A DNA stretch of 64,000 nucleotides from Pirellula sp. (GCA_043744075.1 JAYTVL010000118.1:9191-73190), one strand, 5' to 3'; counted from the stretch's first letter, positions 10,403 through 62,367 are shown. Translations and numbers: made by a program. Notes: generated by a model from the sequence alone, not told the origin.

Positions 10403-10665
10403 GAAAGCAAATTTATTTGCAACATGTTTCTCTGCGGATTGCAAAACGGCGAATGGAACAATGCGTAAGGATGCTTTGGCGTCTCTAAGCCTCTTTTACA
10501 AACGCTGATCCACTGTGCTCCTTCTCAATTTGACTCGGGAAGTCGGATAAACCCCGGCACTCATTGAGCATCGCTCCAAACCTTTGGAAATGGCGTTCAA
10601 GGAGGACTGGTGGTGCATCCTTAAAAGGTTTTTTACTTTTTTCCTAAGCAAACGGAGAACAAAAC

Positions 10666-11694
10666 GTGGCGAATTTGAAGAAGGCATTCAATCAACTATT
10701 TGCTCGACCGCAAGATGAGCAGTTTGAGGACTTTGACAAGCTTTATACGCATTGCTTGCGAAAGCAGCGGGAATCAGAAGTCCACTGGCGACTTCCGCCA
10801 GAAGTTATCCCGCTCGCGTATAACGGCAATGTCAGTCTAAAGCTCAAAGGCGTCAGTGCATTTGGAATGAACGACTGGAGTTTCGGACAGGCATGCAGGA
10901 TTGCAAAGGTCAAAAAGGAAACGCTGAATCGTTTGAAGCCAGATACGACAGCCCAAGTGCTTATTGAAACTATGCCCTTTGGCTCTCGACCGTTTCAAGT
11001 CTTTACCCAAGATGGCGTTGTGAAATCGATTCATGGCGTCGGCTACTCTCGACTTTACGATTCTGACGTTCTAGAGCTTGTGATCGACGAAGCATTTGAC
11101 TTCGATCCTCCGCCTAAGGGGGCAAATGGTGCAACCGGTCTTTATGCGGGCGAACAAGACATGTTCGCTTTTATGATCGACGATAAAACGTGGGTCGATA
11201 TTGGAGGTGAACATTTCGCTCCAGGCTTCTTTATCTGGAATAGCGAAGTTGGACGGCGGTCGGTCGGTATCCAAACTTTTTGGTACCAACGAGTCTGCGG
11301 CAATCACATTGTTTGGGACGCAAACAAAATCGCGTCATACAGTCGAAAGCATACAGCCAATGTCGGAAATGCCGTCGACGATTTGCGATTTCTTCTAAAA
11401 CGCCTCATCCAAACTAGAGATTCGCGAAAAGATGCGTTTACGGCGACCATAAAGCAAGCGATGGCGACTTCACTTGGATCAACTTCGGATGATGTCGCTA
11501 AGGCCTTAAATGGATTTGGAATCGCGGCGGGCTACATCAAGGACGCCGTCGAAATGATGGCGACACAATCCAGTGGGTACACGGTATTTAAAGCAGTTGA
11601 CAGTTTGACTCGGATTACTGGGCGGATCAGTAACGCTGGCGATCGGGCCGAACAAGATTCTAAAGTTGGAAGACTGCTATCAATGGCAAGCTAA
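10666..11694 (+). CDS. DUF932 family protein
   Basis: YAGEQDMFAF, GFFIWNSEVG..S.GI..FWYQRVCGNHIVW...RKHT; GGAG RBS before GTG. Confidence 0.85.
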   Translation: MANLKKAFNQLFARPQDEQFEDFDKLYTHCLRKQRESEVHWRLPPEVIPLAYNGNVSLKLKGVSAFGMNDWSFGQACRIAKVKKETLNRLKPDTTAQVLIETMPFGSRPFQVFTQDGVVKSIHGVGYSRLYDSDVLELVIDEAFDFDPPPKGANGATGLYAGEQDMFAFMIDDKTWVDIGGEHFAPGFFIWNSEVGRRSVGIQTFWYQRVCGNHIVWDANKIASYSRKHTANVGNAVDDLRFLLKRLIQTRDSRKDAFTATIKQAMATSLGSTSDDVAKALNGFGIAAGYIKDAVEMMATQSSGYTVFKAVDSLTRITGRISNAGDRAEQDSKVGRLLSMAS

Positions 11695-11727
11695 CATCGC
11701 GACGAGGCGCGAAGAAAGGAGAATTTA

Positions 11728-11958
11728 ATGGACCCAGAAGCAGCGTGGCGAGCCGTGCTCCAAGCCCTCGTCGATGACGATCGCGAAGCAGCATCGGAAT
11801 ATGCAACGAATCTTATTGGCTGGTTAGACCGTGGTGGTTTTTCGCCCAAGGTCTTACCAGAACTAGGTCAAGCGGCAAGTGATCCAGAATCACCCGCTTA
11901 CCATCTTGATCGCATGATTGTTCGTTTTGTCTGTGCGAGAGTTCGCATAGCTTCTTAA
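11728..11958 (+). CDS. Small hypothetical MGE protein (MDP...WLxRGGFxP type)
   Basis: AGGAG RBS, operonic position. Confidence 0.7.
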   Translation: MDPEAAWRAVLQALVDDDREAASEYATNLIGWLDRGGFSPKVLPELGQAASDPESPAYHLDRMIVRFVCARVRIAS

Positions 11959-11986
11959 CCCCTTTATTTTTGGAGAATTTTGTATT

Positions 11987-12262
11987 ATGGCAACACAAAC
12001 TGCCAAACGCCCTGTTCATGAAATCCGCCTTGGACGAGTCAAGGCCGCAATTTGGGAGAACGATACGAAAGATGGCCTCCGCCATAACATCTCGCTGTCG
12101 CGTATTTACAAAGACGGTAACCAGTGGAAAGACTCCACGAGCTTCGGTCGCGATGACCTGCCGCTCGTGATCAAGGTAGCCGACCTGGCTCACACGTGGG
12201 TTTACGAGAATGCCGGTTCAACTGCAACTGTTGCAGCCGGAAGTACTAGCGAAGAGTTCTGA
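11987..12262 (+). CDS. Small putative ssDNA-binding protein (PC4-like fold inferred)
   Basis: RVKAAIWEN...HNISLSRIYKDGNQWKDSTSFGRDDLP; paralog at 57892..58119. Fold is an inference. Confidence 0.65.
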   Translation: MATQTAKRPVHEIRLGRVKAAIWENDTKDGLRHNISLSRIYKDGNQWKDSTSFGRDDLPLVIKVADLAHTWVYENAGSTATVAAGSTSEEF

Positions 12263-12640
12263 TTTGCTTGTAAAACGCAGACTGCCGTTTGTGCTTGCAA
12301 TTGTAAGACTTAAGGCAGAACTGGAGACACACAATTCGCGTGATTCCCATTTAGGTTTGGATGCACCACCCAAGCCTTTATAGTTTGTTGCGGATGATTC
12401 TCCGCGCTTCTCAAATTGATTCATCTGCGTAGACGAGACATAGATTCCACCTCTTCCATCAAAGCGTGACTAGGCCACGCATTGCTAGAGGAAGGTGGCG
12501 TGCTTTTATTTCTTAGGTTTTAAAAGTCCCTGAAAAGACGGCGATCGTTGCGGTCTTGTCTTCCCCTCCGTCAGCAGCCTGCGCTGCATTCTTCGACGGT
12601 TTGTCTCTCAAGCTGTGGTTTTACCACAAGGAGAATTCTC

Positions 12641-13510
12641 ATGGATCGTGATGAAGCAATGAAGAGGAGCGACGACGCTCTCAAAGAACTTAGCTCGGCC
12701 TTGCAACAAGGCAAGAGCGAAAAGTTGATCGAATACCTTGGCATGCTGTCGAGGTTCCATCAGTATTCGTTTGGCAACTGCATTTTGATTTACTTGCAAA
12801 AGCCAGACGCATCGTTTGTGGCCGGATTCGGTCGATGGAAAGAACTTAATCGATTTGTTCGGAAAGGTGAGAAAGGAATTTCGATCCTCGCACCGATGGT
12901 CGGCAAGAAAAAGAAGGACGCCGATGCGACAAAACTTCAAGCTGAACCGTCAAGCAAATCGTCGAGTGAAGAGTCACCGAAAGTTCTTTATGGCTTTCGC
13001 GTCGTCTACGTTTTCGACGTTTCGCAAACCGAAGGCGAAGAGCTGCCGGAGTTCGCTTCCCTCGGGGGCGATCCTGGCGACAGAATCCAACGGCTCGAAA
13101 CAATTATTCGCGGTCATGGGATCGGATTCGAGTTTGTCGAATGCCTTCCAGGCGCTGCCAATGGTATGTCGGAAGGGGGGAAGATTTCAATCAACTCAAC
13201 AATCCCTAAGCCTCAGATGTTCTCGACGATGGTTCACGAGTTGGCGCATGAACTCCTTCATTGGGGAGATCGTCGTGAATTGACAACCAAAGTCGTTCGA
13301 GAAACGGAAGCCGAAGCGGTTGCATATGTTGTTTGTCGCTCGTGTGGACTTGAATGTTCGACGCGCGCATCGGACTACATCCAACTTTGGAGTGGTGACG
13401 ACAAGATTCTGATGCAGTCGCTTGAACTTATTCGTACCGTTGCTTCTAAGATCATTGCGGAATTGGATTCGACTAAGGTCGAGACTGAAGAGGTAGCCCA
13501 TGTTGCCTAA
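12641..13510 (+). CDS. ArdC-like ssDNA-binding domain protein with C-terminal zinc-metallopeptidase motif
   Basis: FHQYSFGNCILIYLQKPDA..VAGF..WK...RFVRKGEKGISILAP; VFDVSQTEG; HELAH...ETEAEAVAY; AGGAG RBS. Confidence 0.85.
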   Translation: MDRDEAMKRSDDALKELSSALQQGKSEKLIEYLGMLSRFHQYSFGNCILIYLQKPDASFVAGFGRWKELNRFVRKGEKGISILAPMVGKKKKDADATKLQAEPSSKSSSEESPKVLYGFRVVYVFDVSQTEGEELPEFASLGGDPGDRIQRLETIIRGHGIGFEFVECLPGAANGMSEGGKISINSTIPKPQMFSTMVHELAHELLHWGDRRELTTKVVRETEAEAVAYVVCRSCGLECSTRASDYIQLWSGDDKILMQSLELIRTVASKIIAELDSTKVETEEVAHVA

Positions 13511-14498
13511 TAATCTTCAACCATCCGACGACGAAGGAGTTCCATTCGAAGTCAATGTTCCGCATGATTCGTCAAAAGCGAATCAGGTCGATTCAGTTAC
13601 GGACGCTCCTAAACCCGAAGCAATTCGCCTTGGCTGCATTCATTGCAACCGAAATGATTTCGACGGAGTGCATGAGTTGCCGTCCGATTGGCATGAAATC
13701 TATCCAATCCAGACTTGGAATGCATCAATCGAGCAAATAAAATCGAATGATCTGCTCAAGAGAAGTGCGTTGGTCTGGGAGACGCATCTTGGAGTTTGTC
13801 CCGAATGCAATGAAGAATTTGACCGCGAGGAAAAGCCTTCGATGTCGAAGATTCAATGGATGGAATCTGAATCGAGTGATCGCGACGAACGTGAGTTTCA
13901 AAGGTCGCTAAATATACATCCAATCATTCGGCAGATCATCGACCGCGATTGTCATGTCGGAGAAAGTAACCGTAACGTTGTTCGACATGTTGTTTCAAAA
14001 CTGCGGAAAGGAGTCGAATCCTTCCGAGGTATGAGCAAAGCCGATAGACGCAAGTTTATCGAGCAATGTGTTACGCAGCATAGCGGCAACTATCGCCAGT
14101 ACGTCGAAGTAATGAGCGGCTTTCGCTACACCACCCGCTGCAATGATTGCGGTGGGCAACCGATAAGTTCGCTTTCGGGCTCAGAGATTGTCAAAATGAT
14201 GCGAACGCACAAGATGACGATCGAGCAGTTGGCGTTTCGACTCGGAACGTCGCAGAAGCGAGTCCGTCAGGTTCGTGATCTGGGACTGAGCGATGTTTAT
14301 ACGATTCGCGATTGGATTCATGCAATCTCGGATTTGGACGTTGGTCCAATCCCCGAGAAGTACCGAGTTCATAACCGACGAGAAGAAGGCGACTGCTGTT
14401 TCTGCGGCTATCCTCTTTATGTTGGAGACGAAGCTTTCGAATACGTTGGAGAAATGTTTTGTTCAATAACCTGTAGCCGGAAAAGCCGTGGCTGGTAG
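13500..14498 (+). CDS. Hypothetical protein with several CxxC zinc fingers and an HTH-like segment
   Basis: CIHC, CPEC, CNDC, CCFC...CSITC; TIEQLAFRLGTSQKRVRQV helix-turn-helix-like; overlaps ArdC stop. Confidence 0.7.
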   Translation: MLPNNLQPSDDEGVPFEVNVPHDSSKANQVDSVTDAPKPEAIRLGCIHCNRNDFDGVHELPSDWHEIYPIQTWNASIEQIKSNDLLKRSALVWETHLGVCPECNEEFDREEKPSMSKIQWMESESSDRDEREFQRSLNIHPIIRQIIDRDCHVGESNRNVVRHVVSKLRKGVESFRGMSKADRRKFIEQCVTQHSGNYRQYVEVMSGFRYTTRCNDCGGQPISSLSGSEIVKMMRTHKMTIEQLAFRLGTSQKRVRQVRDLGLSDVYTIRDWIHAISDLDVGPIPEKYRVHNRREEGDCCFCGYPLYVGDEAFEYVGEMFCSITCSRKSRGW

Positions 14499-21078: not shown

Positions 21079-21309
21079 CTAATCGTAAATCAAATGCTGC
21101 GCCGCTTCACGCAGCCGATCGCTGACTGAATCCGCTCCACCAATAATCTCAATTGCAGCCGCCCTTCGAAACAGCGTCCCAAGTTGCAGATCGAAATGCT
21201 CGCAGAGCTTTTCCGCTAGTTCGATTTCCTCATTTGTTAGTCCGATCAGTGAAACCGTTGCCGACGCAACTGCAAGGTTAACCTGCCGAATTCGTTCTTC
21301 GATACTCAT
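21079..21309 (-). CDS. Small hypothetical protein
   Basis: Plausible helical 76-aa ORF downstream of the nuclease remnant; weak RBS. Confidence 0.35.
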   Translation of the reverse strand: MSIEERIRQVNLAVASATVSLIGLTNEEIELAEKLCEHFDLQLGTLFRRAAAIEIIGGADSVSDRLREAAQHLIYD

Positions 21310-21845: not shown

Positions 21846-24002
21846 TCAACCCAAACCCTTGGCGAAATCAATTTTTTCCGCCCACTCAGGACGATCGATC
21901 AATGGATTCCGATTGCCCTGCACCGTAAAGATAGCTTCATTGCGATGAAGTTCATACTCGGTGATTGGATGGTCTTTATGCCAGGTCAGAATTACTTTCA
22001 GCCTCTCGGCAGTGTACTCGTTCGCAGATGCGTTTATCTCTCCTGGATAACGAAGTAAGAAATAAAGTGTCGCGCGAGCAACTGGCCCCTTCCCGGAGTT
22101 CGGCTCAAACTTACTGGGATCGCTCCTGCCGCAATCAGAGCGGATGCCCTCCCGGAAATCTGGGAAGTCGAAATACGGTGTGTTGCCTCTAAAACTGTTA
22201 CACACTGACTCGCATGCAAACAAATGGTGCAAGTCTCCTTTCATTGGCTGTTTCTTTTTGAACCAAGACTGGGGCACAACATGCTCGCAATTATACGCAA
22301 GTTGAATTTCGAGCGATTCGAGTAACTCAGCTAATGCTATTTCACTATTCGCCGCTTCCGATGACTTGAATCGCGCAAGTCGCTCTGATCGCAGGCGAGC
22401 AACCTCACGGTCTCTCGCTATTAGTTCCAAAGGGGTGAAGGATTGGCTTGAATAGATACTCGTTATCTTTAATGAACGATGCAGGTCAACCCAGGGGTAT
22501 AAGTGTGTCTTCGGATCATAGCCGAGTTTATTGGTGTGCGTATCCGAAACGATCTTGCTTAACGCTTCATAGAGCTTTGCCGGGGTGAGGTTGGCATCAA
22601 CGCTTGAAAAATATGCGGTTGCAGCCAAGCGATCCGAAGTTGCGTCGTAATAAACTCGGGTTCCAGCCCGGTTTGCTTCTGCTATCGCCGCATTGAAGCC
22701 CCCCTCGCTCAAACTGTCTGTCGTAGGTTGAGCTGGAACGGTAGCGATTCCTGGCGTACCAACATTGACAGTGATCGTGAGTGGAATCGTCCAGGAATTC
22801 GTTGTAGGAGAAATTTGTGCGATGCGTACCGAAGGTGAACCAGAAACAATAGCTTGAATTTGCGGTTGCGTTTCATTCAGTTGTGACGGATTTAGAACCA
22901 AGTCACGTAATTGCCCCTGAGCACTGGTAAGGTTGTGGATCGATTGTAGATGCTCTCGAATCGCTTTTACGCGAATACCTTCGTTTGCAATCCAGTGGAT
23001 GCGGTCTTCCCCCATCTCTTCCTTCCAGACTTGACCGTCTGTAGTCATGTACTGCCCCTGACTGTTACGTTCAGGAAAGCCTGAGTGATGCAGCGCAACA
23101 ACTTCCCATTGATCGTTGAAAACCGGAGCACCAGAGGAACCTGGCGTTGTATCTGTTTCGTAGTAGAGAAACTGGTCCACTGTATCCGGAAATTGAAGAA
23201 CACGGTTTTCTCGCAAGGCGATTTGCTTTAAGTCCCCTCCTGGGTGTTGAATAATGGTTACTCCTTCGCCTGCTAGAATCTCATCGCCAGTAGCTGTGAG
23301 CGGATTGAAACCGAAATGGCTCAGCGAAAAGGCCCCTGACAAAATTGGTGTTGAAGAAACAGCAACAATGGAAACGTCAAGGGAATCCTCAGGGCTTGTC
23401 GTGAAAAACAATTCTGGCCTCAAACGAAACGAGACTTTCGCGAGTTCATTTCCATCGAACCCGAGTTGGTAATTGAATTCAACAATGCTGTTGCCAGCAA
23501 CAGCGGTCGATGGAAGTACATGGTTATTTGTCATGAAAAGATTTGGTGAAATCATTGACCCGGTTCCATAGCCCAGAATGTCGTCTGACGAATTGCGAAT
23601 AACAACTCTTGCAACTGCGAACCCAGCTCGCTGACCTTGATCGAGATAGCGAATCGACAACAACTCGCTACGTCCAATTATTCGCTCCAACCCGATGCGG
23701 TGCAAATCTAGCCCTGCCGCCAGTTCTAGTCTCTCCGATGCATGGGCTAGGGTAATCTCTTTTGAGAAACCGAGTCGAGCCAATCGCCGCTCAACTGCGT
23801 TAGAGGGGTTCGACTGTAAGAGTTCAAATGAACTTCTAGGCTCAAGTCTTGCTCGCAACGACTCATGTCGCGTTCGAGGCGCATTTCCTTCAATGTCGAT
23901 GGTTTCAGACACTTGAAGTGCTTTTTTCCCAAACTTTTTCTGAAACCGTTTGGCTGTTGCATTCAAAAGATCCGCTCGGGACAAAATTGAAGTTGTATTC
24001 AT
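21846..24002 (-). CDS. Trypsin/V8-like serine protease fused to endonuclease I (HNH-type) domain
   Basis: Protease triad TNNHVL / LDVSIV / TPGSSGAPV; nuclease NCEHVVPQSW, DLHHLF, NSFRGN, KGPVARATLYFLLRY. Start at ATG 24002 or upstream at 24053. Confidence 0.9.
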   Translation of the reverse strand: MNTTSILSRADLLNATAKRFQKKFGKKALQVSETIDIEGNAPRTRHESLRARLEPRSSFELLQSNPSNAVERRLARLGFSKEITLAHASERLELAAGLDLHRIGLERIIGRSELLSIRYLDQGQRAGFAVARVVIRNSSDDILGYGTGSMISPNLFMTNNHVLPSTAVAGNSIVEFNYQLGFDGNELAKVSFRLRPELFFTTSPEDSLDVSIVAVSSTPILSGAFSLSHFGFNPLTATGDEILAGEGVTIIQHPGGDLKQIALRENRVLQFPDTVDQFLYYETDTTPGSSGAPVFNDQWEVVALHHSGFPERNSQGQYMTTDGQVWKEEMGEDRIHWIANEGIRVKAIREHLQSIHNLTSAQGQLRDLVLNPSQLNETQPQIQAIVSGSPSVRIAQISPTTNSWTIPLTITVNVGTPGIATVPAQPTTDSLSEGGFNAAIAEANRAGTRVYYDATSDRLAATAYFSSVDANLTPAKLYEALSKIVSDTHTNKLGYDPKTHLYPWVDLHRSLKITSIYSSQSFTPLELIARDREVARLRSERLARFKSSEAANSEIALAELLESLEIQLAYNCEHVVPQSWFKKKQPMKGDLHHLFACESVCNSFRGNTPYFDFPDFREGIRSDCGRSDPSKFEPNSGKGPVARATLYFLLRYPGEINASANEYTAERLKVILTWHKDHPITEYELHRNEAIFTVQGNRNPLIDRPEWAEKIDFAKGLG

Positions 24003-24036
24003 GATTTCTGTTTGGGCCTGGGTGTTAAAAAGACTG

Positions 24037-26250
24037 TTATGAACTGCTCGCAATTGCTTTAATTGCGTTCATATTTGCGACGAAATCAGGGTCGTCCCCG
24101 TACTTAGTCGCAAGGCTTGCGTGCTTAAGTGCGGACTCGTACATGCCGCGCTTTACAAGCTCAGCTGCGAGATTGTTATGAGCCTCTGCGTGAGTGGGGC
24201 GAAGTGCAATCGCCAAGTTATAGTGACACACAGCAGATTCTTCTTGACCAAGTTCTGAATATGCAAGCCCAAGATTGGCTTGAAGATCAGCATCCATTTC
24301 CTCGTGGTGAAGCGCGCCGAGATAGGCGTCAAGTGCAGCTGACAGGTCCCCACCCTCAAGCCTAACGTTTCCGATTTCACGTAAAGCTCGCCATTCCTGA
24401 GGCTTTATCTCGAGCACTCGCTCAAAATCGTTAATTGCTCCAACGGAATCGCCAGTTTGAGCAAGAAGAAGCCCTCGATTTAAATGGGCTTCGAAATATG
24501 GAGGTGAAAGCGCAATTGCTCGCCCGTACGCTTCGATAGCTTCTGACTCCCGACCGGCAATTTTGGATAACAAGTTACCAAGGTCGTTGTAATACTCTGC
24601 GTAGTATGGATCGCATGCTATCGCATCCAACAGATGCAACTCCGCTTGTACTTGATCGTCTATGATTTCATATATTTGGCTTGTATTGTAGATAAGGATC
24701 GAACGATGCAAACGATACGTGTCTTCTCCATAGGCTGCCAAGATCTCGGCATTGCCCCGCCTACAAAGTTCAAGTGCTTCGTCAAATTTCCTCTGCCTCG
24801 CCTTGATGTAGGCGTAGGCATTCTCAGCAAAGACCAAAATATATTTGTATTTTGGATGCTTGTTGAAACGGCTCTTAATGAGGGACAAATTCTGGGTCGC
24901 ATATGCTTCCGCACGATCCAAATCGACCGGAACCAAATAACGGCCATAAGTCATCGATTGAGCGTATAGCGCCGTCGGAACGAACTTACTTCCAGGAAAA
25001 CGTTCGAGAAATTCTTCAAGAAAGGGCGACGATGCATTTGCATTACCCATCGCATAAAGAACAAATGCGGCATTTAAGAAAATGCCATTCTGCGGGTCGT
25101 CTCCGCTGCCATGCAAACGCAGATCCAAATCGACAAACATCGGAGCGAACAATGAAAACCAACTATCATAAAGCCCAATCCCCATCAGGATTTCGAAGGG
25201 TTCAACCAACAACTCCATACGTTTATATTTATTTGACACCGCCATCGCATACGCTAGAACCAGCGGCCCCTTGCCGTCCTTGTATTTTTCTAGAGCAAAA
25301 CAATGTTTACGTTCATTCTCCAAATCGACCTGCGGTGATGAGAGCTTTTCAGCGTTGCGCCTCGCGATTGGCATCAAATAGTCACATTGGTCGTATTCAA
25401 CTGCAAGATTCTCTCGCTGAATTGGGCTCAAAGTTGCAAGAAAGAAATCGAACACCGATTCTGCCGAAAGATTCCCAACAGTCCTCACGCTATTTTCGAA
25501 GCAATGTTTCAGTGCTCGACCAATTTGTAGATTTCCAAAGCTTGCCCGATAGATTTGCTCCCGTTGATCGATCGGCATGTTGTCCACGCCGAGTTGCTCT
25601 TCGAATTCAAAACGGGAATACGCGGAGAATTGAATCGTGACGGCCTGAGGGAAAAAGAGAGTGCCATCCGGATCAAGGAGTATGAAACGCAATCGCTCAC
25701 GACTAGGCTGTATTCGACTAATAATATCGATCAGACTCTTCGATGTAGGAGACAACCAGCTGGAGTTTCGAATCGTAAGCAAAATCGAACGGCCCTTGGC
25801 CTCTAATATTTCGATTAAGAACTCCGCAAGACCAACGAGTAGCTTATTCTGATACTCATGATGATAGAAGCGTGTTCGCTCTTCTCGAGAGGAGGTGTTC
25901 GTAAGATCACTCGGAACCCGATACGACGCTGATTTCCGTGTTGGCCAGATTCGCTTTAATGTCTGTTCATGTCGTGCTACAACATGCGGAAAACACTTCT
26001 CTGCGTCTTCCAAAAGCTCGAGTAGTAGTTCCTGAAAGCCGGAAAGATACCCAGAAGACAGCCAGCTACCATTAGCAACAAACGGCTCCCAGCTCGGCAT
26101 ACTTTCTGACGCTAGCCGTACGGACGCAACTTGACCGAAGCCACTTGCACCGGTCATTACGACCAGTTGATTTGCATCAACGGCGGTCTGAATCTGGAGA
26201 GCAAGATCCGGTCGTGGAAGTTCTTCCGCATCTAACGAAGATGAATTCAC
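24037..26250 (-). CDS. Degenerate (inactive) STAND-like P-loop domain + TPR repeat protein
   Basis: VVMTGASGFGQ (Walker A lacking Lys), no acidic Walker B at ILLTIRN; more than 6 TPRs (YYNDLGNLL, AHLNRGLLL, LQANLGLAY, AHNNLAAEL). Confidence 0.75.
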   Translation of the reverse strand: MNSSSLDAEELPRPDLALQIQTAVDANQLVVMTGASGFGQVASVRLASESMPSWEPFVANGSWLSSGYLSGFQELLLELLEDAEKCFPHVVARHEQTLKRIWPTRKSASYRVPSDLTNTSSREERTRFYHHEYQNKLLVGLAEFLIEILEAKGRSILLTIRNSSWLSPTSKSLIDIISRIQPSRERLRFILLDPDGTLFFPQAVTIQFSAYSRFEFEEQLGVDNMPIDQREQIYRASFGNLQIGRALKHCFENSVRTVGNLSAESVFDFFLATLSPIQRENLAVEYDQCDYLMPIARRNAEKLSSPQVDLENERKHCFALEKYKDGKGPLVLAYAMAVSNKYKRMELLVEPFEILMGIGLYDSWFSLFAPMFVDLDLRLHGSGDDPQNGIFLNAAFVLYAMGNANASSPFLEEFLERFPGSKFVPTALYAQSMTYGRYLVPVDLDRAEAYATQNLSLIKSRFNKHPKYKYILVFAENAYAYIKARQRKFDEALELCRRGNAEILAAYGEDTYRLHRSILIYNTSQIYEIIDDQVQAELHLLDAIACDPYYAEYYNDLGNLLSKIAGRESEAIEAYGRAIALSPPYFEAHLNRGLLLAQTGDSVGAINDFERVLEIKPQEWRALREIGNVRLEGGDLSAALDAYLGALHHEEMDADLQANLGLAYSELGQEESAVCHYNLAIALRPTHAEAHNNLAAELVKRGMYESALKHASLATKYGDDPDFVANMNAIKAIASSS

Positions 26251-26273
26251 AGATTCCAGCTTTGCCTTAACAA

Positions 26274-26489
26274 CTATACCGTACCGGTGTACGGTGTTGT
26301 CGTTCGAATCCTTGTCTTCGTGACCGTTACTTTTTTGATGATTGAAGTGCCCTTCGGTTGCCCTAACTTGTTAACTAGATTTCTTTCTTCGGTAGACTCG
26401 GTTTTTATTTCAGAATCGGTCGTTGTTACTATTTCGGGGTACTTCGCGTTCAGCGGATTTACTGGAAATTCCAAATTTGGGTCAGCCAT
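26274..26489 (-). CDS. 71-aa Thr-rich peptide upstream of the TPR gene
   Basis: AGGTG RBS; 14 Thr of 71; stop 23 nt before the TPR start. Confidence 0.6.
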   Translation of the reverse strand: MADPNLEFPVNPLNAKYPEIVTTTDSEIKTESTEERNLVNKLGQPKGTSIIKKVTVTKTRIRTTTPYTGTV

Positions 26490-26656
26490 TTTTTCACCTG
26501 AGTAGATCTGGTTTGGATTTGCACCGAAGCACGGTGTTCGGCATCAAACGTATCAAGACGTTCTCTTTAGTTTAGGGCAGCCTCGCACCCGGAACAAGTG
26601 GCCCTGTTGGAGACGCAAAGTCCTCTTTGTAATTTATTTCATTGCGTATCTGGAAC

Positions 26657-27745
26657 TCACCAATTGTTGACTTCGATAAAATTCCACCCAAGCTCGTGGG
26701 TTTCTAGTCGAAGTGTATGGTTACGGTCGACTTTGAGTCCGTCTGACTGTTTTTCTGTACAGACTCGTACGATTGCGAGATACATATGCGTATTCTCAAG
26801 CGGGCGGCGAACAAATTTCCAGTCTTCGATTGCGATCATCTCAATGAATTCGGTAATCGCCCGCGCCCCAGCTAGCGTTCCAAGATGCCCGATTCCTGCG
26901 GCAAATCCAAGCAAACTACCCTCGGTTGGTTCCAGAATGCCAACGAAACCGAAATCCTCTTCTAGGTCATCACGCACCTCTCCGACAATCTCTTTATTAT
27001 CGCTTCGACGAATCATTCCTCCTTTCAACGCTGGTCCCACATAAAAAAGGCTTCCTTCCAGTTGATTCTGCGCAAATGGAAGTCGAATCTTTGGGAAAAC
27101 ATCGTCTTTGGGTACATTAAAAAATGATGCGATGACACCAGTCGTCAGACAAGTGTTCGGCGCTCCGAAGGAAAAAACGGCCGAACACGACTGTGCTTTC
27201 TCTTGCAGGAACACTTGTTTCTTGTCTTCAATTTTTTTGTGTAACTCCCAAGCCTTTGATCCTGCATCTACCGGCGGCAATTCCAGTATCGGATCAATGC
27301 GCACATCAAAATTCTGGTCACTATGCAACGCTCCTACAAACTCGCACAGTCCCTTCAAGTCATGAAGTGAAGCTACATGTTTACTTGCGTCGCCTCCATC
27401 GATCCACGTTCCGATATGACTACCTGCAACCACTTGGACCGTCGCTTTGTTTGCGAGTCGTTCCCATATCCTCGGTTTTAGCGATATAAAATGATCCGCC
27501 CGCAATCCAAAGCGCCTTAGGTTTTTCAGATTGCTCTCCTGAAGCATTGTCGACCTTTGTTCATGCTTATCGTCGGGAATACTTAAACTAAGACGTTGTT
27601 CCCTTTTTGACATCCCCAACTCCCTCGCCCTTTGAGCTAGAGCCCACTGCACTGCCCGATGGGCTACTTCCTCGCCACGTGAATCGGAAATGAATCGCAC
27701 CAGTTCATCAATCAAAAGATACACAGGCCTGCTCTCGTTTGTCAT
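26657..27745 (-). CDS. Hypothetical protein (possible N-terminal HTH-like + C-terminal alpha/beta domain)
   Basis: 362-aa ORF co-oriented with the peptide-TPR-protease operon; no firm motif. Confidence 0.6.
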   Translation of the reverse strand: MTNESRPVYLLIDELVRFISDSRGEEVAHRAVQWALAQRARELGMSKREQRLSLSIPDDKHEQRSTMLQESNLKNLRRFGLRADHFISLKPRIWERLANKATVQVVAGSHIGTWIDGGDASKHVASLHDLKGLCEFVGALHSDQNFDVRIDPILELPPVDAGSKAWELHKKIEDKKQVFLQEKAQSCSAVFSFGAPNTCLTTGVIASFFNVPKDDVFPKIRLPFAQNQLEGSLFYVGPALKGGMIRRSDNKEIVGEVRDDLEEDFGFVGILEPTEGSLLGFAAGIGHLGTLAGARAITEFIEMIAIEDWKFVRRPLENTHMYLAIVRVCTEKQSDGLKVDRNHTLRLETHELGWNFIEVNNW

Positions 27746-27976: not shown

Positions 27977-28993
27977 ATGCAACGACCTTTTAGGCTTCTA
28001 GCGACATTCGCATTACTTGCGTCGACATTCGTCACTTCCGGAAGTGCTCAGTTTAATACCAACGCTACAACCGGGAACGCCCAGTCAAATCCATTTTCCT
28101 TTCGTAAGAAAGGGATTGTATTCGACATCAACTATTCAACGCTCCAAGGAGACCTAAACTACTGGGTTGCTAAAAAAGCATCCGCCGTTCGCTACCAAGT
28201 CATGTTGAAGCAACCACCCGATACTACGCTAAATGGTGCCCCATTCGATAAAGCGACGACTGAACAGCATGTACAATGGATCAATTCGCTTATGGCAACC
28301 ATTGTTGCTAACAACATGGTGCTAATCGTTGATTTCCATGTACCCGATCGAAAGGTCTTCCAGTTTCCGGTACTCAAATGGGATGACTTTACTGACGACT
28401 GGGGCCGAATCGTCGCTGGAGTAGGACATCATAGGAGTGCAAACATCGCATTCGAATTGGCAAACGAGCAGGTCAGTGACGATTGGCCGAACCGCGCACT
28501 TACGGCGGCTCAACGCATTCGTCGGGTAGAATCTGCCCGTGGCTTCGATAAGCATCCAATCCTCTATTCCCCTAGAGGCACAACAACAAGTCCAGCAACC
28601 ACTTTTACTAAGCTTCCCATCGATGGTCCACAGGTGGTGGTATTCCATTTTTGGAACTGGCTAACTCGAGGACCAAATGTTCAAAACACTCCACCTTCAG
28701 CAATTCTTGAATACCCGAATCCGAATCAATCACTCCCAACGATAAAAGCCAGGCTTAACGAGGTCCAACAATGCGGTATTTCCAACGGCTGCCCAGTGTT
28801 GATTTCAGAAGTGTCGATCGACTATCGCCACCCAGATGCAGCCGCATTTACAAAGGATTTTTTGCAAGCAGCCACAGACCGAAATATTAGCGTAACCTGG
28901 CATGCTAACGACGGTTCATACTGGGTTGGCTCAAAAAGAAACCCTGAGAGTGCTGGTTTCAAAGAGCTTGTCGCTTGGATGAATGCACAGTAG
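27977..28993 (+). CDS. Secreted glycoside hydrolase family 5 (cellulase-like)
   Basis: Signal peptide; IVDFH, FELANEQ (acid/base), FHFW, VLISEV (nucleophile), VTWH. Confidence 0.75.
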   Translation: MQRPFRLLATFALLASTFVTSGSAQFNTNATTGNAQSNPFSFRKKGIVFDINYSTLQGDLNYWVAKKASAVRYQVMLKQPPDTTLNGAPFDKATTEQHVQWINSLMATIVANNMVLIVDFHVPDRKVFQFPVLKWDDFTDDWGRIVAGVGHHRSANIAFELANEQVSDDWPNRALTAAQRIRRVESARGFDKHPILYSPRGTTTSPATTFTKLPIDGPQVVVFHFWNWLTRGPNVQNTPPSAILEYPNPNQSLPTIKARLNEVQQCGISNGCPVLISEVSIDYRHPDAAAFTKDFLQAATDRNISVTWHANDGSYWVGSKRNPESAGFKELVAWMNAQ

Positions 28994-30108: not shown

Positions 30109-30804
30109 ATGACCGAATACCAAACTTTCACTCCTGAAGAATTACTTGGACCACTAAACGAGGTGGAATCAAAGAACGCTCCAAAACAATTGTTTGTCGC
30201 TGGCGATACTAGAATCCTAGAACGCGGAGCAAGAGTTTCAATTGTAGGATCAAGAAAGGCGTCCGCTAATGGTGTTAATCGTGCGGGGAGGCTTGCAAAG
30301 CTATTGGTTGCTCGAGATATCGTCGTCGTTAGTGGGCTTGCGGAAGGAATCGACGCCGCTGCACATCTAGGTGCGATGGACTCTGGAGGACGAACAATTG
30401 GAGTCATCGGAACGCCACTTGACGTCGCTTATCCAAAAAAGCACGCGGATCTTCAGAACCGGATTGCAACCAAACATCTTTTGATATCTCAATTTCCTAT
30501 CGGTATTCCGACATCGCCAAAGTGTTTTCCGCAACGCAACCGCACGATGGCCTTAATCTCGGATGCGACCGTTATTATCGAGGCCTCGGATGCAAGTGGT
30601 TCGCTGCATCAAGGTTGGGAAGCGCTCCGGCTTGGTCGACTACTATTGATTGCAAAATCTGTTGTTGACGATCGATTGCTTTTATGGCCAAAAGAGATGC
30701 TCGAATATGGAGCGCAAGTCCTAGATGACGCAACGCTTGAGGACTTCTTTTATAGTCTTCCACCTCGAGATCTAGCGATTCATGACGGCCAACTTCCCTG
30801 CTAA
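30109..30804 (+). CDS. DprA/Smf (SLOG) family protein, core domain only
   Basis: VSIVGSRKAS, VVVSGLAEGIDAAAH, VIGTPLD..YP, FPQRNRTMALIS, IEAS..SGSLHQ. Confidence 0.9.
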   Translation: MTEYQTFTPEELLGPLNEVESKNAPKQLFVAGDTRILERGARVSIVGSRKASANGVNRAGRLAKLLVARDIVVVSGLAEGIDAAAHLGAMDSGGRTIGVIGTPLDVAYPKKHADLQNRIATKHLLISQFPIGIPTSPKCFPQRNRTMALISDATVIIEASDASGSLHQGWEALRLGRLLLIAKSVVDDRLLLWPKEMLEYGAQVLDDATLEDFFYSLPPRDLAIHDGQLPC

Positions 30805-31435
30805 CATCGCGTTTGCGTCCTACCTGACGTATGACCCCAGAGGCGATTCAGATGAGGCAAGAAAATCTCGTGATTTTACTTATTCGGTTAAGCAAGATGG
30901 ATCGGTCGGAACGATTAGAACCATTGACGGGATAATCGAGCGAATTCTGTTTAGACTCGAGCAGTTTCCGTTTTTGAGAGACTTCTTAAATCCAAAAGCT
31001 ACTCTCATTCCAATGCCTCGGAGCGCCCCGCTCAAGCCGAGTACATTGTGGGTTCCCAAACGAATTTGTGATTCGTTGGTTTCAGCTGGCCTCGGTGCTG
31101 AGACGCTGGCTTGCATCGAACGATTTAAGGCAGTTACAAAATCCTCTACAGCTGGGTCGAGGCGACCTAGCCCAGAAGAGCACTTTTCTACAACCCGGAT
31201 TTTAAACAGTCCTACTTTTCCGCTAGTTACCGATATAGTTCTCATTGACGACGTGCTAACGCGAGGATCTACATTCGTGGGAGTCTACCCACACATCCAA
31301 CGAGCATTTCCTTCCGCCAACATAAAGTGCTTTGCATTGGTTAGCACGCGGGGCCTCGATAATTTCCGACAGATCTTGGATCCTGTTCAAGGGACGATTA
31401 CGTATGACAGTGGTTCACTGGATCGAGTTCCCTGA
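30782..31435 (+). CDS. Type I phosphoribosyltransferase (ComF-like), partner of DprA
   Basis: LIPMPRS, IVLIDDVLTRGSTF PRPP-binding motif; overlaps the DprA gene end. Confidence 0.85.
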   Translation: MTANFPANIAFASYLTYDPRGDSDEARKSRDFTYSVKQDGSVGTIRTIDGIIERILFRLEQFPFLRDFLNPKATLIPMPRSAPLKPSTLWVPKRICDSLVSAGLGAETLACIERFKAVTKSSTAGSRRPSPEEHFSTTRILNSPTFPLVTDIVLIDDVLTRGSTFVGVYPHIQRAFPSANIKCFALVSTRGLDNFRQILDPVQGTITYDSGSLDRVP

Positions 31436-32884: not shown

Positions 32885-33859
32885 TTGACAGCGGAATTCG
32901 ATCCCTCTCGATTAAATTTACCGGCGATCCGAGATAGGATTTCCCCTATCGTTCAAGCAGCCGGAGATGCGGCTAAATTCGCCTGGGAAGAATTTTTTTA
33001 CGGTCGCATTCGAAGCGAGCATACTCGGCGAGCCTATCTTCGTGCTGTCAGCTACTTCCTGACGTGGTGCGAAAAGCAAGGCCTCGAACTCAGAACAATA
33101 AGCCCCGCTCACGTCGGTCTCTATATAGACAGCCTCATCCTTTCGACGGCAAGCAAGAAGCAAGTCCTCGCGGGACTTCGCCATTTCTTCGATGGTATGG
33201 TAACTCGCCATGCAATCGCTCTAAACCCTGCCCTTTCTGTTCGAACAGAACGATATTCAGTGGTTGAGGGCAAGACTCCCGAGATCACAGTCAAACAGGC
33301 TCGCAAACTTCTTCAATCAATCGACACTAACGACGTTATCGGGCTTCGAGATAAGTGCACTATCGCAATCCTAATCTACACCGCAGCTCGAATCGGGGCC
33401 GTATCCAAACTCAAAGTCAAAGACCTCTATGACTCGGGCGACCAGTACTGCCTTCACTTTTTAGATAAGGGCGGTAAGTCGCGCGAGATCCCTGTGAGGC
33501 ACGATTTGCAAACGCTCTTGTTCGAGTACTTGCGATCAGCAGACATGCTGCTTGGATTTGATAATGATCGCCCACTCTTTACCACGACCATACGGAAGAC
33601 CAAGGAGCTTACGCTTCGCAGGATGAAGGAAAACGATATCGGCCGTATGGTCAAGCGTCGAATGAAAGCCGCAAATCTTCCCGGACGATTATCCCCGCAT
33701 TCGTTTAGAGTCGCTACAATCACCGACCTACTTGGACAAGGAGTTCCACTTGAGGATGTGCAGCAGCTCGCCGGTCACGCTGATCCTAGGACTACGCGGC
33801 TTTACGATCGCCGTCAAAAGAAAATTACTAGAAACATCGTTGAGCGAATTTCAATCTAA
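32885..33859 (+). CDS. Tyrosine recombinase/integrase (XerC/D-like)
   Basis: N-terminal SAM-like domain (HTRRAYLRAV..F..W); catalytic R (YTAARIGAV), K (DKGGK), HSFR, GHAD..TT..Y. Confidence 0.95.
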   Translation: MTAEFDPSRLNLPAIRDRISPIVQAAGDAAKFAWEEFFYGRIRSEHTRRAYLRAVSYFLTWCEKQGLELRTISPAHVGLYIDSLILSTASKKQVLAGLRHFFDGMVTRHAIALNPALSVRTERYSVVEGKTPEITVKQARKLLQSIDTNDVIGLRDKCTIAILIYTAARIGAVSKLKVKDLYDSGDQYCLHFLDKGGKSREIPVRHDLQTLLFEYLRSADMLLGFDNDRPLFTTTIRKTKELTLRRMKENDIGRMVKRRMKAANLPGRLSPHSFRVATITDLLGQGVPLEDVQQLAGHADPRTTRLYDRRQKKITRNIVERISI

Positions 33860-39663: not shown

Positions 39664-41232
39664 TTGGGATGGACCTTGAACGGAACAACGACGGACCTTG
39701 CTGAATTTGCTGCCAGGCAACAGGCGCATTTTGACCGAACAATCTCCGCTTCTGAGCGAAAGCTTCAAGGACATTTCGGTACTTCGCCTTCCATTGCGAA
39801 GTTCATGGCCGAAATGTTCTCGGAAAACCGCAGTGATTCCATTCGCATTCTCGATCCAGGAGCTGGAGTTGGAATCCTTTCTGCAATTTTATGCCAAACG
39901 ATTTGCCATAATCGTGCAAATCGAAAGATCTACGTTGAACTCTGGGAAAACGACAAAAAACTCATTCCGTTACTTAAGAGCACCATGGATCGGTGCCAAA
40001 GTGCACTCGGAGAACTCGGACATCAACTCACATTCGATGTTTGTGCCGAAGACTTTATTTTGGCCAACACGCAGACGTCGCTTTTCTCCGATGGGCCTCA
40101 GCCATCGTTCCACATGGCGATTACCAATCCTCCTTATTTTAAGTTGCGAAAGGATTCTCAACACGCGAGAGTTATGTCTCACGTAGTTCATGGCCAACCG
40201 AACATCTACACGCTCTTCATGGCGTTGGCGACCGACTTCCTACTCCCGAACGGTGAGATGGTCGCGATAACACCCCGGAGCTATTTCAACGGGCCGTATT
40301 TCAAGCGTTTTCGAATCTGGTTTTTTGATCGTGCTGTTCCTAGGAAAATTCACGTTTTCGAAACAAGAAACGATGCCTTTAGAAAGGACTCGGTTCTCCA
40401 AGAAAATGTAATCATGCTCGTTGAGAAAGGTGGAAAACCGAAGGTAATTGAACTTTCAAGTAGTTCTGGTACTGACTTCAAGTCCATTAAGACACAGACT
40501 TCGCCGTTCGAACAAATCATCGATTCCATTTCTGGCGACAAAATCGTTCGCGTTGCGTCCGACCCATTCGAGACTTTGATTTTAGAGGCAATGGATTCGT
40601 TCCCACAACGATTTAGGCAACTTGGGTATGAAGTCTCAACCGGTCCAGTCGTTACATTTCGTTCAACCGAGTTTCTACGAGACTCGAAGTCATCCGATAC
40701 TGTACCGCTGCTTTGGATGCACAATGTCCGCCCGTTTATTACTCAGTTTCCCAAGGCGAACGGAAAACCCACCCACATACAAGTAACCGAGAAATCAAAA
40801 AAACTTTTGATAAGTGCAAAGACATACGTCCTTTTGAAACGCTTCACGGCGAAGGAAGAAAGCAAGAGGTTGGTTGCGGGGATATTTCGCGCCGGAGATT
40901 CTTATGGAGACTTGGTCGGTATTGAAAACCACGTCAATTATGTCTATCGCAAAGGCGCAATTCTCCACCTTTCAGAAGCTTTTGGATTGGCTGCGTTCTT
41001 TAACTCCTCATTTGTTGATCGGTACTTTCGTTCGATTAGTGGGAATACCCAAGTAAATGCAACTGAACTTCGAGAGCTGCCCATCCCGACTGTTCAACGA
41101 ATTCAAGACATTGGCGAGCAGGTTCAAAGATTAGGAAGCTTCGAACCACGTGCAATTGAAATGATTGTTGGCAAGTGCCTTGGTCTTCCAAAGCAATTAC
41201 TTGAACGACTTCTAGAGGATGCAAATGGGTAA
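39664..41232 (+). CDS. N6-adenine DNA methyltransferase, BsuBI/PstI (Eco57I-like) type
   Basis: GHFGT, ILDPGAGVG (SAM), ITNPPY (motif IV), C-terminal LKRFTAKEE..RL, ENHVN, SGNTQVNATEL. Confidence 0.93.
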   Translation: MGWTLNGTTTDLAEFAARQQAHFDRTISASERKLQGHFGTSPSIAKFMAEMFSENRSDSIRILDPGAGVGILSAILCQTICHNRANRKIYVELWENDKKLIPLLKSTMDRCQSALGELGHQLTFDVCAEDFILANTQTSLFSDGPQPSFHMAITNPPYFKLRKDSQHARVMSHVVHGQPNIYTLFMALATDFLLPNGEMVAITPRSYFNGPYFKRFRIWFFDRAVPRKIHVFETRNDAFRKDSVLQENVIMLVEKGGKPKVIELSSSSGTDFKSIKTQTSPFEQIIDSISGDKIVRVASDPFETLILEAMDSFPQRFRQLGYEVSTGPVVTFRSTEFLRDSKSSDTVPLLWMHNVRPFITQFPKANGKPTHIQVTEKSKKLLISAKTYVLLKRFTAKEESKRLVAGIFRAGDSYGDLVGIENHVNYVYRKGAILHLSEAFGLAAFFNSSFVDRYFRSISGNTQVNATELRELPIPTVQRIQDIGEQVQRLGSFEPRAIEMIVGKCLGLPKQLLERLLEDANG

Positions 41233-61166: not shown

Positions 61167-62159
61167 TTAATTGATTGCTATAGCTAAAACCTTTCCAAGG
61201 CGTACACCGCCCGCGAGCATGCGTTGTTGTGCAGAATTACCACCGCTCTTGAGGTAGCTCTCACTACAGACGACGGGTATATCTTGAGTGTTTGCAATCA
61301 GTTGCGCCCGTATCTCTTGCGAATAGGCAAGCGAAGATGCAATTTCGAGGCTCTCGGTCAACCAATCCTCTTCGTTCATCGACAAACTCTCTGTGGGATC
61401 GTGCTCACCAATAAGTTGAAGTGCACGGTTTCTCGCCGTACGCCACTTAATGTCATTTCCTGGGAATTGATCCCATAAGCTATGCAGATTACCTCTCTGT
61501 TTCGTTTTTATCGAATTTCCGCCTCTGTCGCCTCGTTTGAATAACGTCTCCGAATATAACGAAACTGAGTGAAGGGGCTGATGGATGTCGCCAACGGTAT
61601 GGCATAGCCAAGTTATCATTAAAGCCTTGTTTGCATCTGTGGCGTTTACGTCACGTAGGACAGACCGAGATTTTCGGATAGCCTGAACAATGTTCATGTC
61701 TTCGACAATTGCAGCCGGAGGATGCAGGCTTACGTTCGCAGTTAGCTTTCCGGCAAAGAAATGCACATCGGATTCTTGAAGAAAAACTGGGAGGTTAATG
61801 TAATGCCAAGAGCCATGATGGTAGGTCGCCTTAAGTTCGCCACGGAAGCCTCGCGTGATGTCCGGCCAAATCGATGCTTGCTGGAGCATCCACTCATGCC
61901 TTTCGGTTTCGTTCGTGATTTCCTTTTCTTTGGCAAGGATCGTTTCAAAATCCTCAGCAAATCTTGGATGGTTCTTAAGTAGCCCAACAAATTTTCTTCG
62001 TTGGACTTCATTCAACTGCCTGAATGCTATCGACGCAATAATACGATGCCCAGCCGAACTCCATGCACATGCATTTGGGGCAAGCATCAGCACGAGTAGA
62101 AAACTGACGACCAAGGCGCGAGAGCAGAATCGACTCCCGTATCTTTGGCAACGTTTCAT
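61167..62159 (-). CDS. S1/P1 nuclease (secreted)
   Basis: Signal peptide, then mature W-SSAGH; ASIWPD; WHYIN; H.VGDIHQPLH; GDRGGN; NLHSLWD; LAGG.RL. Confidence 0.95.
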   Translation of the reverse strand: MKRCQRYGSRFCSRALVVSFLLVLMLAPNACAWSSAGHRIIASIAFRQLNEVQRRKFVGLLKNHPRFAEDFETILAKEKEITNETERHEWMLQQASIWPDITRGFRGELKATYHHGSWHYINLPVFLQESDVHFFAGKLTANVSLHPPAAIVEDMNIVQAIRKSRSVLRDVNATDANKALMITWLCHTVGDIHQPLHSVSLYSETLFKRGDRGGNSIKTKQRGNLHSLWDQFPGNDIKWRTARNRALQLIGEHDPTESLSMNEEDWLTESLEIASSLAYSQEIRAQLIANTQDIPVVCSESYLKSGGNSAQQRMLAGGVRLGKVLAIAIN

Positions 62160-62163
62160 TCTG

Positions 62164-62367
62164 TTAGCTCCCAATTGCTCGCCCAACGATAAAACAAATC
62201 CCGAGGATAAAAGCGGCCATGACAGCTGCAGCAGCCATATTTCCCTTTTTGATTTCCTGCGCAAAATCGATCCGCCATTCCAAAAAGTCGAAAAGAAAGT
62301 AACCGGCGATCGACAAGACCAAACCGACCGAACCGAAAAGTGAAGCGATTAATACTGATTCCCACAT
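62164..62367 (-). CDS. DUF350 small membrane protein
   Basis: Two TMs with IDFAQEIKKGNMAAAAV; GGAG RBS before ATG 62367. Confidence 0.85.
   Translation of the reverse strand: MWESVLIASLFGSVGLVLSIAGYFLFDFLEWRIDFAQEIKKGNMAAAAVMAAFILGICFIVGRAIGS

Follow-up and report, generated by a model that had tools for sequence, protein, structure and literature searches.

Several described conflict systems build on a cytoplasmic trypsin-like peptidase that is joined by a flexible linker to a His-Me-finger nuclease. They include the NucA-peptidase system, which is System 3 of Kaur, Burroughs, Iyer & Aravind (eLife 2020, PMC7159879), and LypC, a part of the Caulobacter LypABC CARD-NLR-like system (bioRxiv 10.1101/2025.05.08.652646). 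For this class, a role in proteolytic cascades controlled by STAND/NLR-like proteins has been proposed or shown. In bacteria, plants and animals alike, STAND/NLR-like proteins are key switches in immunity and cell death. It is also established that protease-effector modules attach to many unrelated STAND sensors (PMC12642450, PMC12799240). Here, we analyse a locus where a trypsin-endonuclease I protein lies beside a TPR protein with an inactive STAND-like domain and a small Thr-rich peptide gene. It is located in a stretch of 64,000 nucleotides (nt) from Pirellula sp. (GCA_043744075.1 JAYTVL010000118.1:9191-73190), below called the window, which belongs to a 9.47-Mb planctomycete assembly that is 99% complete. 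The locus consists of four minus-strand open reading frames (ORFs) of 362, 71, 737 and 735 amino acids (aa), with intergenic gaps of 167, 23 and 34 nt, Table 1. Our best explanation overall, held tentatively and at slightly under even confidence, is a composite of three origins, i.e. a peptide-TPR cassette, a swapped-in effector and a flanking gene, in which a peptide-gated sensor would act together with a suicide nuclease.

The protease-nuclease of the window has the same three parts as the NucA-peptidase and LypC proteins, and LypC of Caulobacter has the same protease-linker-endonuclease layout. However, its nuclease is an Endonuclease I (PF04231), not NucA/Endonuclease_NS, and no partner trypsin-STAND, CARD or Death-like protein or S8 peptidase was found in the genome, where no search was aimed at CARD-like domains. 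The adjacent STAND-like protein differs as well: its P-loop is dead, it lacks an adaptor domain, and a peptide is dedicated to it.

In Avs, Hachiman and other systems (PMC12799240, PMC12642450) protease-effector modules have likewise been gained repeatedly by unrelated sensors. In those systems the sensor carries the protease and the effector (MBL nuclease, hydrolase or Pepco) is a protein apart, whereas in the window it is the nuclease that is joined to the protease, next to a sensor encoded by its own gene. The TPR protein does not fit Avs/AVAST either, as PADLOC reports only a generic TPR match of 20.8 bits, there is no N-terminal effector, and the P-loop is dead. The ternary iSTAND systems (Kaur 2020) likewise use a STAND domain with lost catalytic motifs as a scaffold. 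The earlier note on this DNA had pointed to known inactive-STAND systems, but neither a MoxR AAA+ nor a vWA partner is found among the ORFs scanned within ~8 kb, the protein lacks an N-terminal effector or EAD domain, and a peptide partner is not an iSTAND feature. In the RRNPP receptors (Rap/Phr, NprR, PlcR/PapR, AimR/AimP) a TPR protein is also encoded beside a small gene for a presumed peptide ligand. However, the receptor of the window is twice as long, contains a STAND-like P-loop and, according to Pfam, has no HTH or phosphatase domain, while its peptide lacks a signal sequence and has a core that is invariant across phyla instead of strain-specific.

The TPR protein belongs to a family of about 111 proteins, all of ~735-780 aa, with 35-64% identity and about 100 invariant columns. 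The family is found in Alpha- and Betaproteobacteria (Bradyrhizobium, Rhizobium, plasmid pMVF16-1 of Microvirga sp. VF16, Liberibacter crescens, Duganella, Burkholderia), in Vibrio, in Streptomyces, Micromonospora and Lentzea, in Bacillus cereus and Paenibacillus, and in Bacteroidota, Acidobacteriota and Planctomycetota. For 69 loci there is enough upstream sequence to search for the peptide, covering Proteobacteria, Actinomycetota, Bacillota, Bacteroidota, Acidobacteriota and Planctomycetota. All 69 contain, just upstream of the TPR gene, a small ORF that ends in (I/V/L)-R-T-(T/V/I)-T-P-Y-x(2-5)-stop. The core (I/V/L)-R-T-T-T-P-Y-x-G/A-x is nearly invariant across the phyla, and the variants RTVTPY and RTITPY are found at two loci. 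The peptide of the window has an acidic N-terminal half (NPLNAKYPEIVTTTDSEIKTESTEE...) and a basic, Thr-rich C-terminal half that ends in IRTTTPYTGTV.

All four Thr codons, all four Pro codons and both Tyr codons occur in the core, while the residues are fixed. The long form of the peptide, of about 70 aa in all, is exactly 61 aa from the NPxN motif on in 12 diverse loci, and this part has a median pN of 0.17 vs a pS of 0.81. Free codon variation at fixed residues, the fixed length and the low pN together argue for a translated and strongly constrained peptide, rather than an RNA element or a mere leader. None of the N-termini (MKKK..., MKVKV..., MADPN...) contains a hydrophobic segment. The constant co-occurrence and the purifying selection agree with the earlier proposal that peptide and TPR protein are functionally linked, and most likely the peptide is a dedicated ligand or substrate of the TPR protein.

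A regulatory leader, i.e. a Thr-codon attenuator or arrest peptide, or a 3' RNA hairpin that controls the TPR gene, could also account for a small upstream ORF. The gene has three consecutive Thr codons, and in the window the palindrome ACCGTACACCGGTACGGT (26278-26295) overlaps its last codons (PYTGTV) and is followed by a T-rich run. However, the palindrome is not kept at other loci and is thus probably fortuitous, and a hairpin or leader role for it is ruled out by the free synonymous variation. The additional 40-residue N-terminal part of the long form is also of fixed length and under purifying selection. Altogether, control by a leader or hairpin is extremely improbable. On the opposite strand of the peptide gene (26287-26505, plus strand), and at the equivalent position of other loci, there is a spurious ORF starting with MYGVVVR..., the mirror of RTTTPY, which may mislead gene callers.

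The extent of the cassette was defined by nucleotide homology to the nearest relatives, which starts at a TTGACA-like, promoter-like box before the peptide gene and ends at the stop codon of the TPR gene. The upstream regions of the window and of loci L015, L084, L085 and L086 (L numbers are our locus designations) were aligned, and no similarity is seen further upstream. The box occurs once in the window. From these limits the cassette consists of the box, the peptide and the TPR gene, and nothing else. Judged by homology, the real unit is this two-gene cassette, and the four genes are not a conserved unit.

The earlier note had described the locus as a putative four-gene defence operon. Its description of four tightly spaced minus-strand genes is correct, as are the other sequence features that it lists, and the setting is a defence island, but the neighbourhood comparison does not support one operon that evolves and acts as a unit. 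Three features are not in the note: a fifth ORF with an S1/P1 nuclease remnant, the hairpin of the 362-aa gene and the box before the peptide gene. The four-gene arrangement is found nowhere else among the loci examined, the 362-aa gene is missing at every other peptide-TPR locus, and the trypsin-endonuclease I gene has other neighbours elsewhere. In addition, a terminator-like hairpin and the box of the cassette separate the 362-aa gene from the peptide gene. We therefore regard a single four-gene operon as very improbable.

The 362-aa protein has no match in Pfam, PADLOC or NCBIfam, and a word-based homologue search was empty. An exhaustive HMMER search of 1.8 billion representatives found only two homologues. 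The one with a readable context, in the unrelated metagenome contig L087, keeps the same divergent GH5-like flank gene and has no RTTTPY peptide. The hairpin at the 3' end of the gene suggests that the 362-aa transcript stops before the cassette. The gene is judged to be a native flank of the island and not a part of the system. The GH5-like gene encodes a secreted protein (Cellulase, E 1.6e-8; 27977-28993 in the window, 3873-4949 in L087) and forms with the orphan a small conserved two-gene unit. Proteins of 334-368 aa upstream of other cassettes, the LDcluster4/LOG-like ones included, were considered as relatives of the 362-aa protein, but BLASTP detects no similarity. An AlphaFold2 (AF2) model of the orphan, built from three sequences, has a predicted local distance difference test (pLDDT) score of 41 and is unusable.

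Among 401 Planctomycetota genomes, a full-length member of the TPR family is present only in the window's own genome, which has no second cassette. This distribution leads us to reject vertical inheritance and favours horizontal acquisition.

In PADLOC, Pfam and NCBIfam the cassette matches no profile beyond generic TPR and a weak AAA_16, and the peptide matches nothing, including any precursor family. For the whole locus, the PADLOC check that the earlier note had suggested gives generic TPR and trypsin domains, and no defence-system model. A full-text literature search for RTTTPY returned zero papers, and literature on the combination of TPR, prolyl oligopeptidase, MFS and precursor peptide contained nothing relevant. 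By the libraries and literature searched, the cassette appears to be an undescribed pair that spans phyla.

Next to the peptide, the TPR protein itself shows the fold of a STAND-like sensor with degenerate catalytic motifs. The P-loop domain stands at its very N-terminus, and the protein itself contains no effector domain. A P-loop NOD fold, a helical domain and a repeat sensor are recognised from AAA_16, AF2, Foldseek and the Pfam TPRs, the latter at ~390-720 of the 737 residues only. The AAA_16 matches to the N-terminal domain, found in five members, have E-values from 1.8e-6 to 0.03 and are below the gathering score. As the earlier note had read directly from the sequence, the P-loop Lys is replaced by Gln and Walker B has no acidic residue. 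In place of Walker A (GxxxxGK[ST]) the window has GASGFGQV, and the Lys is absent in all 27 long-form members; 25 of 42 short-form members keep GK, followed by x-D instead of S/T. In place of Walker B (hhhhD[DE]) the window has LLTIRNSS, and the family consensus is hhhIDNA. An invariant block from D115 to K136 in the P-loop domain is a candidate peptide-binding or catalytic patch.

In L084, peptide and TPR gene form a natural in-frame read-through, which was modelled by AF2 as a fusion (TAA read as Gln, paired plus unpaired rows). This homologue is 62% identical and gives a STAND-like/TPR structure with a pLDDT above 90 for the homologue, a mean pLDDT of 87 for the fusion and a predicted template modelling score (pTM) of 0.85. 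Foldseek matches it over the whole length to the STAND-TPR structure 6mfv_A; the other matches are dominated by generic TPR proteins (OGT, SPY, APC/C).

The third gene product that matters here is the protease-nuclease. Translation from the start codon conserved in the family, the ATG at 24002, yields 718 aa; a TTG further upstream, at 24053, would overlap the TPR gene by 17 nt. Pfam identifies Trypsin_2 (E 2e-19, residues 163-321) and Endonuclease_1 (E 5e-31, residues 512-723). In a 15-member alignment the catalytic residues are invariant, i.e. His (TNNHV), Asp (LD) and Ser (GSSG) of the protease and His (NCEHVVPQSW) of the nuclease. The N-terminus (MNTTSILSRADLLNATAKRFQKKFGKK...) has no hydrophobic signal sequence, and none of the 15 aligned members has a signal peptide. 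The claim of an intact serine protease fused to an intact endonuclease I without signal peptide thus holds. The closest solved relatives are V8/glutamyl endopeptidase and the Vvn endonuclease I. Like the periplasmic endonuclease I proteins (EndA/Vvn, PDB 1OUP), the nuclease domain keeps the EHVVP His and the GNRNP motif, but it lacks a signal peptide and sits behind a protease and a linker tag. Four cysteines of the domain (21885-22520; NCEH, FACE, CNSF and DCG) are invariant in the cytoplasmic family. For the periplasmic Vvn/EndA relatives, a lack of activity in reducing conditions has been reported (PMC5714182), and the nuclease might therefore be redox-silenced in the cell.

More than 2,500 homologues have the same architecture, among others in Pirellula staleyi, Gemmataceae, cyanobacteria, Acidobacteria and Nitrospira. 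In the three contexts that were read, the neighbours differ and the 737-aa family is in none. The linker tag, with the family consensus TWTIPLxVSVxLG, occurs once or twice in trypsin-nuclease proteins of P. staleyi. In the source genome, the trypsin-endonuclease I gene is the sole trypsin of its clade and the sole ORF with the tag. PLD, S1/P1 and DUF2278 neighbours of the cassette were searched for the tag, and it is absent. In P. staleyi (L011, CP001848.1, 5811811-5830042), an orthologue with 60% identity is followed by Trypsin-NB-ARC-TPR (1224 aa), Lipase_3 and Trypsin-EndoNS-S8. The last of these contains two copies of the TWTIPL tag, and SIR2_2 and MBL-fold proteins are found upstream in the cluster. 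This P. staleyi cluster represents the NucA-peptidase conflict system that Kaur et al. described in 2020 (PMC7159879). The trypsin-endonuclease I protein is a new member of the already noted protease-tag-nuclease effector class.

Two observations connect this protein to the cassette. First, its gene starts 34 nt after the TPR gene with no hairpin between them, and the first terminator-like site comes after an S1/P1 nuclease remnant, so that the two genes are probably co-transcribed. The remnant matches only profile positions 114-252 of 258 in the Pfam S1-P1_nuclease family, and its counterpart in an intact paralogue of 365 aa at 61167-62264 is residues 220-364, with 36% identity. It is truncated exactly at the end of the trypsin-endonuclease I gene, which has taken the place of the 5' two-thirds of the nuclease gene. 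In L025, L059 and L084 the S1/P1 nuclease beside the cassette is intact. Since the gene that is cut here is a recurrent neighbour, this looks like the replacement of one effector by another. Second, at L095 (JAESFU010000073.1, 3336-9508) a trypsin-nuclease fusion, a long RTTTPY peptide, a TPR protein and a 391-aa deaminase-like protein are encoded on the same strand. The fusion, immediately upstream of the peptide and TPR genes, is a Trypsin_2-Endonuclease_NS protein of 712 aa with the tag variant GIVIPLQLRVSL; it is non-orthologous to the one in the window, and the trypsin domains are 35% identical. The TPR protein of L095 belongs to another subclade than that of the window. A second, independent trypsin-nuclease beside the cassette makes a sensor-effector link plausible. 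The deaminase-like gene directly downstream (matches to dCMP_cyt_deam_1, MafB19-deam and Bd3614-deam) is a further candidate effector.

According to the tree and the motif table, the family is divided into two clades. Clade A (Actinomycetota, Bacillota, Vibrio) has short peptides of 21-22 aa and keeps the Walker A Lys as GKxD. Clade B has no Walker Lys and includes short-peptide loci of the Bradyrhizobium type and all 27 long-peptide loci. The two peptide forms have different neighbours. Among 37 short-form loci, MFS is found at 36, an S9A prolyl oligopeptidase at 27, another S9 peptidase at five (32/37 with any S9 peptidase), ATP-grasp at 14 and a cupin at four. The ~28 long-form loci contain PLDc_2 (~17, of which many are from related Oxalobacteraceae), DUF2278-LTD (~13), S1/P1 nuclease (four, including the remnant in the window) and a MoCo plus ferritin-like/2Fe-2S pair (five). 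PLD is also found with the cassette on the Microvirga plasmid, in metagenome-assembled genomes (MAGs) of Planctomycetaceae and Cyclobacteriaceae, and on unassigned contigs. Other long-form neighbours are DNase II with Tle1, GmrSD, TIR proteins, LOG/SLOG proteins, a C39-ABC exporter, integrases and a deaminase. MFS and prolyl oligopeptidase are found at none of 18 long-form loci within the flanks read.

From the short-form loci, one could argue that the cassette is a module for a peptide product, RiPP-like (ribosomally synthesised and post-translationally modified peptide) or a signal, and that the nuclease is an unrelated neighbour in a defence island. RTTTP would then be a recognition stretch, the prolyl oligopeptidase would cut after Pro, and the Tyr-led tail or trimmed peptide would be modified or chaperoned by the TPR protein and exported. 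The short forms do resemble RiPP and microcin clusters, with a precursor-like gene, MFS, prolyl oligopeptidase and in some cases ATP-grasp or cupin. Each short peptide has a single Pro, and at many short-form loci (e.g. L047, L053, L058, L017, L045) a GC-rich hairpin lies 30 nt after the peptide stop, as in RiPP/bacteriocin precursor genes; the spacers of the long-form loci are only 12-45 nt. In L084 a C39-peptidase ABC transporter and an HlyD-type adaptor (10465-14035) directly follow the long-form cassette, the sole export machinery seen beside long-form loci, and the long peptide there has a possible GA/GG-type site between YESGA and PKG. The trypsin-endonuclease I family also usually occurs without the cassette.

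However, no known modifying-enzyme domain is found, and the long-form locus of the window has neither export nor processing genes, in line with the absence of MFS and prolyl oligopeptidase from the other long-form flanks read. The TPR protein has no recognisable enzyme domain and a dead P-loop in this branch, and antibiotics do not typically have a core that stays invariant from phylum to phylum. Hydrolases are found beside the cassette repeatedly and in different phyla, a second trypsin-nuclease occurs at L095, and the 34-nt spacing without hairpin suggests co-transcription with the nuclease. On balance, a peptide-product module with an unrelated nuclease is unlikely. In a broader view, RTTTPY and the ~740-aa STAND-like/TPR protein would be an unrecognised, ancient cross-phylum family, in which an encoded small peptide is dedicated to an NLR/STAND-type protein. 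One branch would work with an exporter and an oligopeptidase; in the other, with its dead ATPase, the pair would be a switch, gated by the peptide, for cytotoxic enzymes that are swapped in on mobile islands (PLD, nucleases, deaminase, protease-nucleases). Sensor control of this kind would be a new principle among bacterial conflict systems. We regard this broader generalisation as less likely than not.

For the window, the composite with a peptide-gated sensor leads to the following mechanism. The TPR/iSTAND protein would be held in a resting state by its peptide. The peptide may be lost, cleaved or displaced, or an invader molecule may be bound during infection, upon which the TPR protein would change state or assemble. 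In this altered form it would license the trypsin domain to cut at the linker tag, and the freed endonuclease I would degrade DNA in an abortive-infection-type response. The long-form cassette travels on mobile or defence islands beside interchangeable degradative enzymes. In our estimate, this mechanism, in which a switch gated by the peptide lets the protein cut itself at the tag and set the nuclease free, falls somewhat short of an even chance. Peptide binding, the coupling between TPR protein and protease and the role in defence are the parts that we infer, while the gene families, the strict pairing of peptide and TPR protein, the degenerate motifs, the intact catalytic residues and the changing neighbours are shown.

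The protease could also act on the peptide itself. The peptide would then be a latent, Pepco-like effector in which the acidic N-terminal half masks a basic, beta-prone C-terminal half; the TPR protein would sequester it, and the V8-like, possibly Glu-specific, protease would remove the Glu-rich pro-region. The acidic and basic halves and the fixed 61-aa length of the long form agree with this, as do the glutamyl endopeptidases among the closest solved relatives of the protease, and small protease-activated effector proteins are known (PMC12642450). However, a protease of any kind is found at only 2 of ~28 long-form loci, and the C-terminal half is very polar (Thr/Lys/Arg) and not clearly amphipathic. 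The short forms are without pro-region and are encoded for the cytoplasm with no obvious harm. A latent effector is thus quite improbable.

Several observations weigh against the peptide-gated switch with a suicide nuclease. The context of the short form resembles peptide processing and export, not immunity. No locus but the window shows the trypsin-endonuclease I gene beside the 737-aa TPR family, L095 adds a single case with a non-orthologous fusion, and adjacency by chance is more frequent where genes cluster in defence islands. Signal peptides are present on the S1/P1 neighbours, as one would sooner expect of secreted enzymes than of suicide effectors. Phage sensors evolve fast, unlike the peptide and the TPR surface, which are extremely conserved. 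The promoter and terminator assignments are consensus matches only, and a sigma-70 promoter scan gave match counts no higher than in shuffled sequence. In the AF2 read-through fusion the RTTTPY core is undocked (pLDDT <50; only residues 49-60 reach ~64). The fusion blocks the free C-terminus of the peptide and thus speaks neither for nor against binding, so that binding is suggested by co-occurrence and co-conservation only.

If the peptide gates the switch, the cassette would offer a simple, testable model, with two components, for keeping an NLR-like scaffold off and then releasing it. It would also show the exchange of effectors on one sensor, here a protease-nuclease for an S1/P1 nuclease. 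A STAND-like protein that is always paired with its own small invariant peptide is not described in the libraries and literature searched. If instead the peptide is an exported product, it would represent a new family of peptide natural products in Streptomyces, Paenibacillus, Bradyrhizobium and Vibrio.

Table 1. Features of the locus in the window, listed from the 5' end of the minus strand.
Feature	Position	Strand	Basis
362-aa orphan protein, judged outside the system (native flank)	26657-27745	-	ORF
Terminator-like hairpin at the 3' end of the 362-aa gene	26686-26701	-	consensus scan only
Conserved promoter-like box (CTTGAYAC...), ~60 nt before the peptide start	26540-26557	-	upstream-region alignment
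71-aa long-form peptide	26274-26489	-	ORF and family comparison
737-aa protein: inactive STAND-like P-loop, helical region, C-terminal TPR array	24037-26250	-	family, Pfam, fold
Degenerate Walker A GASGFGQV, Gln40 for Lys	26128-26151	-	family alignment
Invariant block D115-L-T-N-T-S-x-x-E-E-R-T-R-F-Y-H-H-E-Y-Q-N-K136, P-loop domain	25843-25908	-	invariant alignment columns
Trypsin (V8-like)-tag-endonuclease I fusion, 718 aa	21846-24002	-	Pfam; conserved ATG; full ORF 21846-24053
Linker tag SWTIPLTITVNVG, between protease and nuclease domains	22758-22796	-	family consensus TWTIPLxVSVxLG
S1/P1 nuclease remnant, C-terminal ~145 aa	21329-21820	-	Pfam partial match
Terminator-like hairpin, possible end of the transcription unit	21096-21115	-	consensus scan only

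The island around the locus contains further genes of interest. A DprA-like and PRTase pair is found at 30109-31435, a tyrosine integrase at 32885-33859 and an Eco57I-type methylase at 39664-41232. The DprA-like gene (DNA_processg_A, SLOG cluster 4) overlaps the weak PRTase_2 gene. The tyrosine integrase is related to that of L084, which is located at a similar distance from the cassette.

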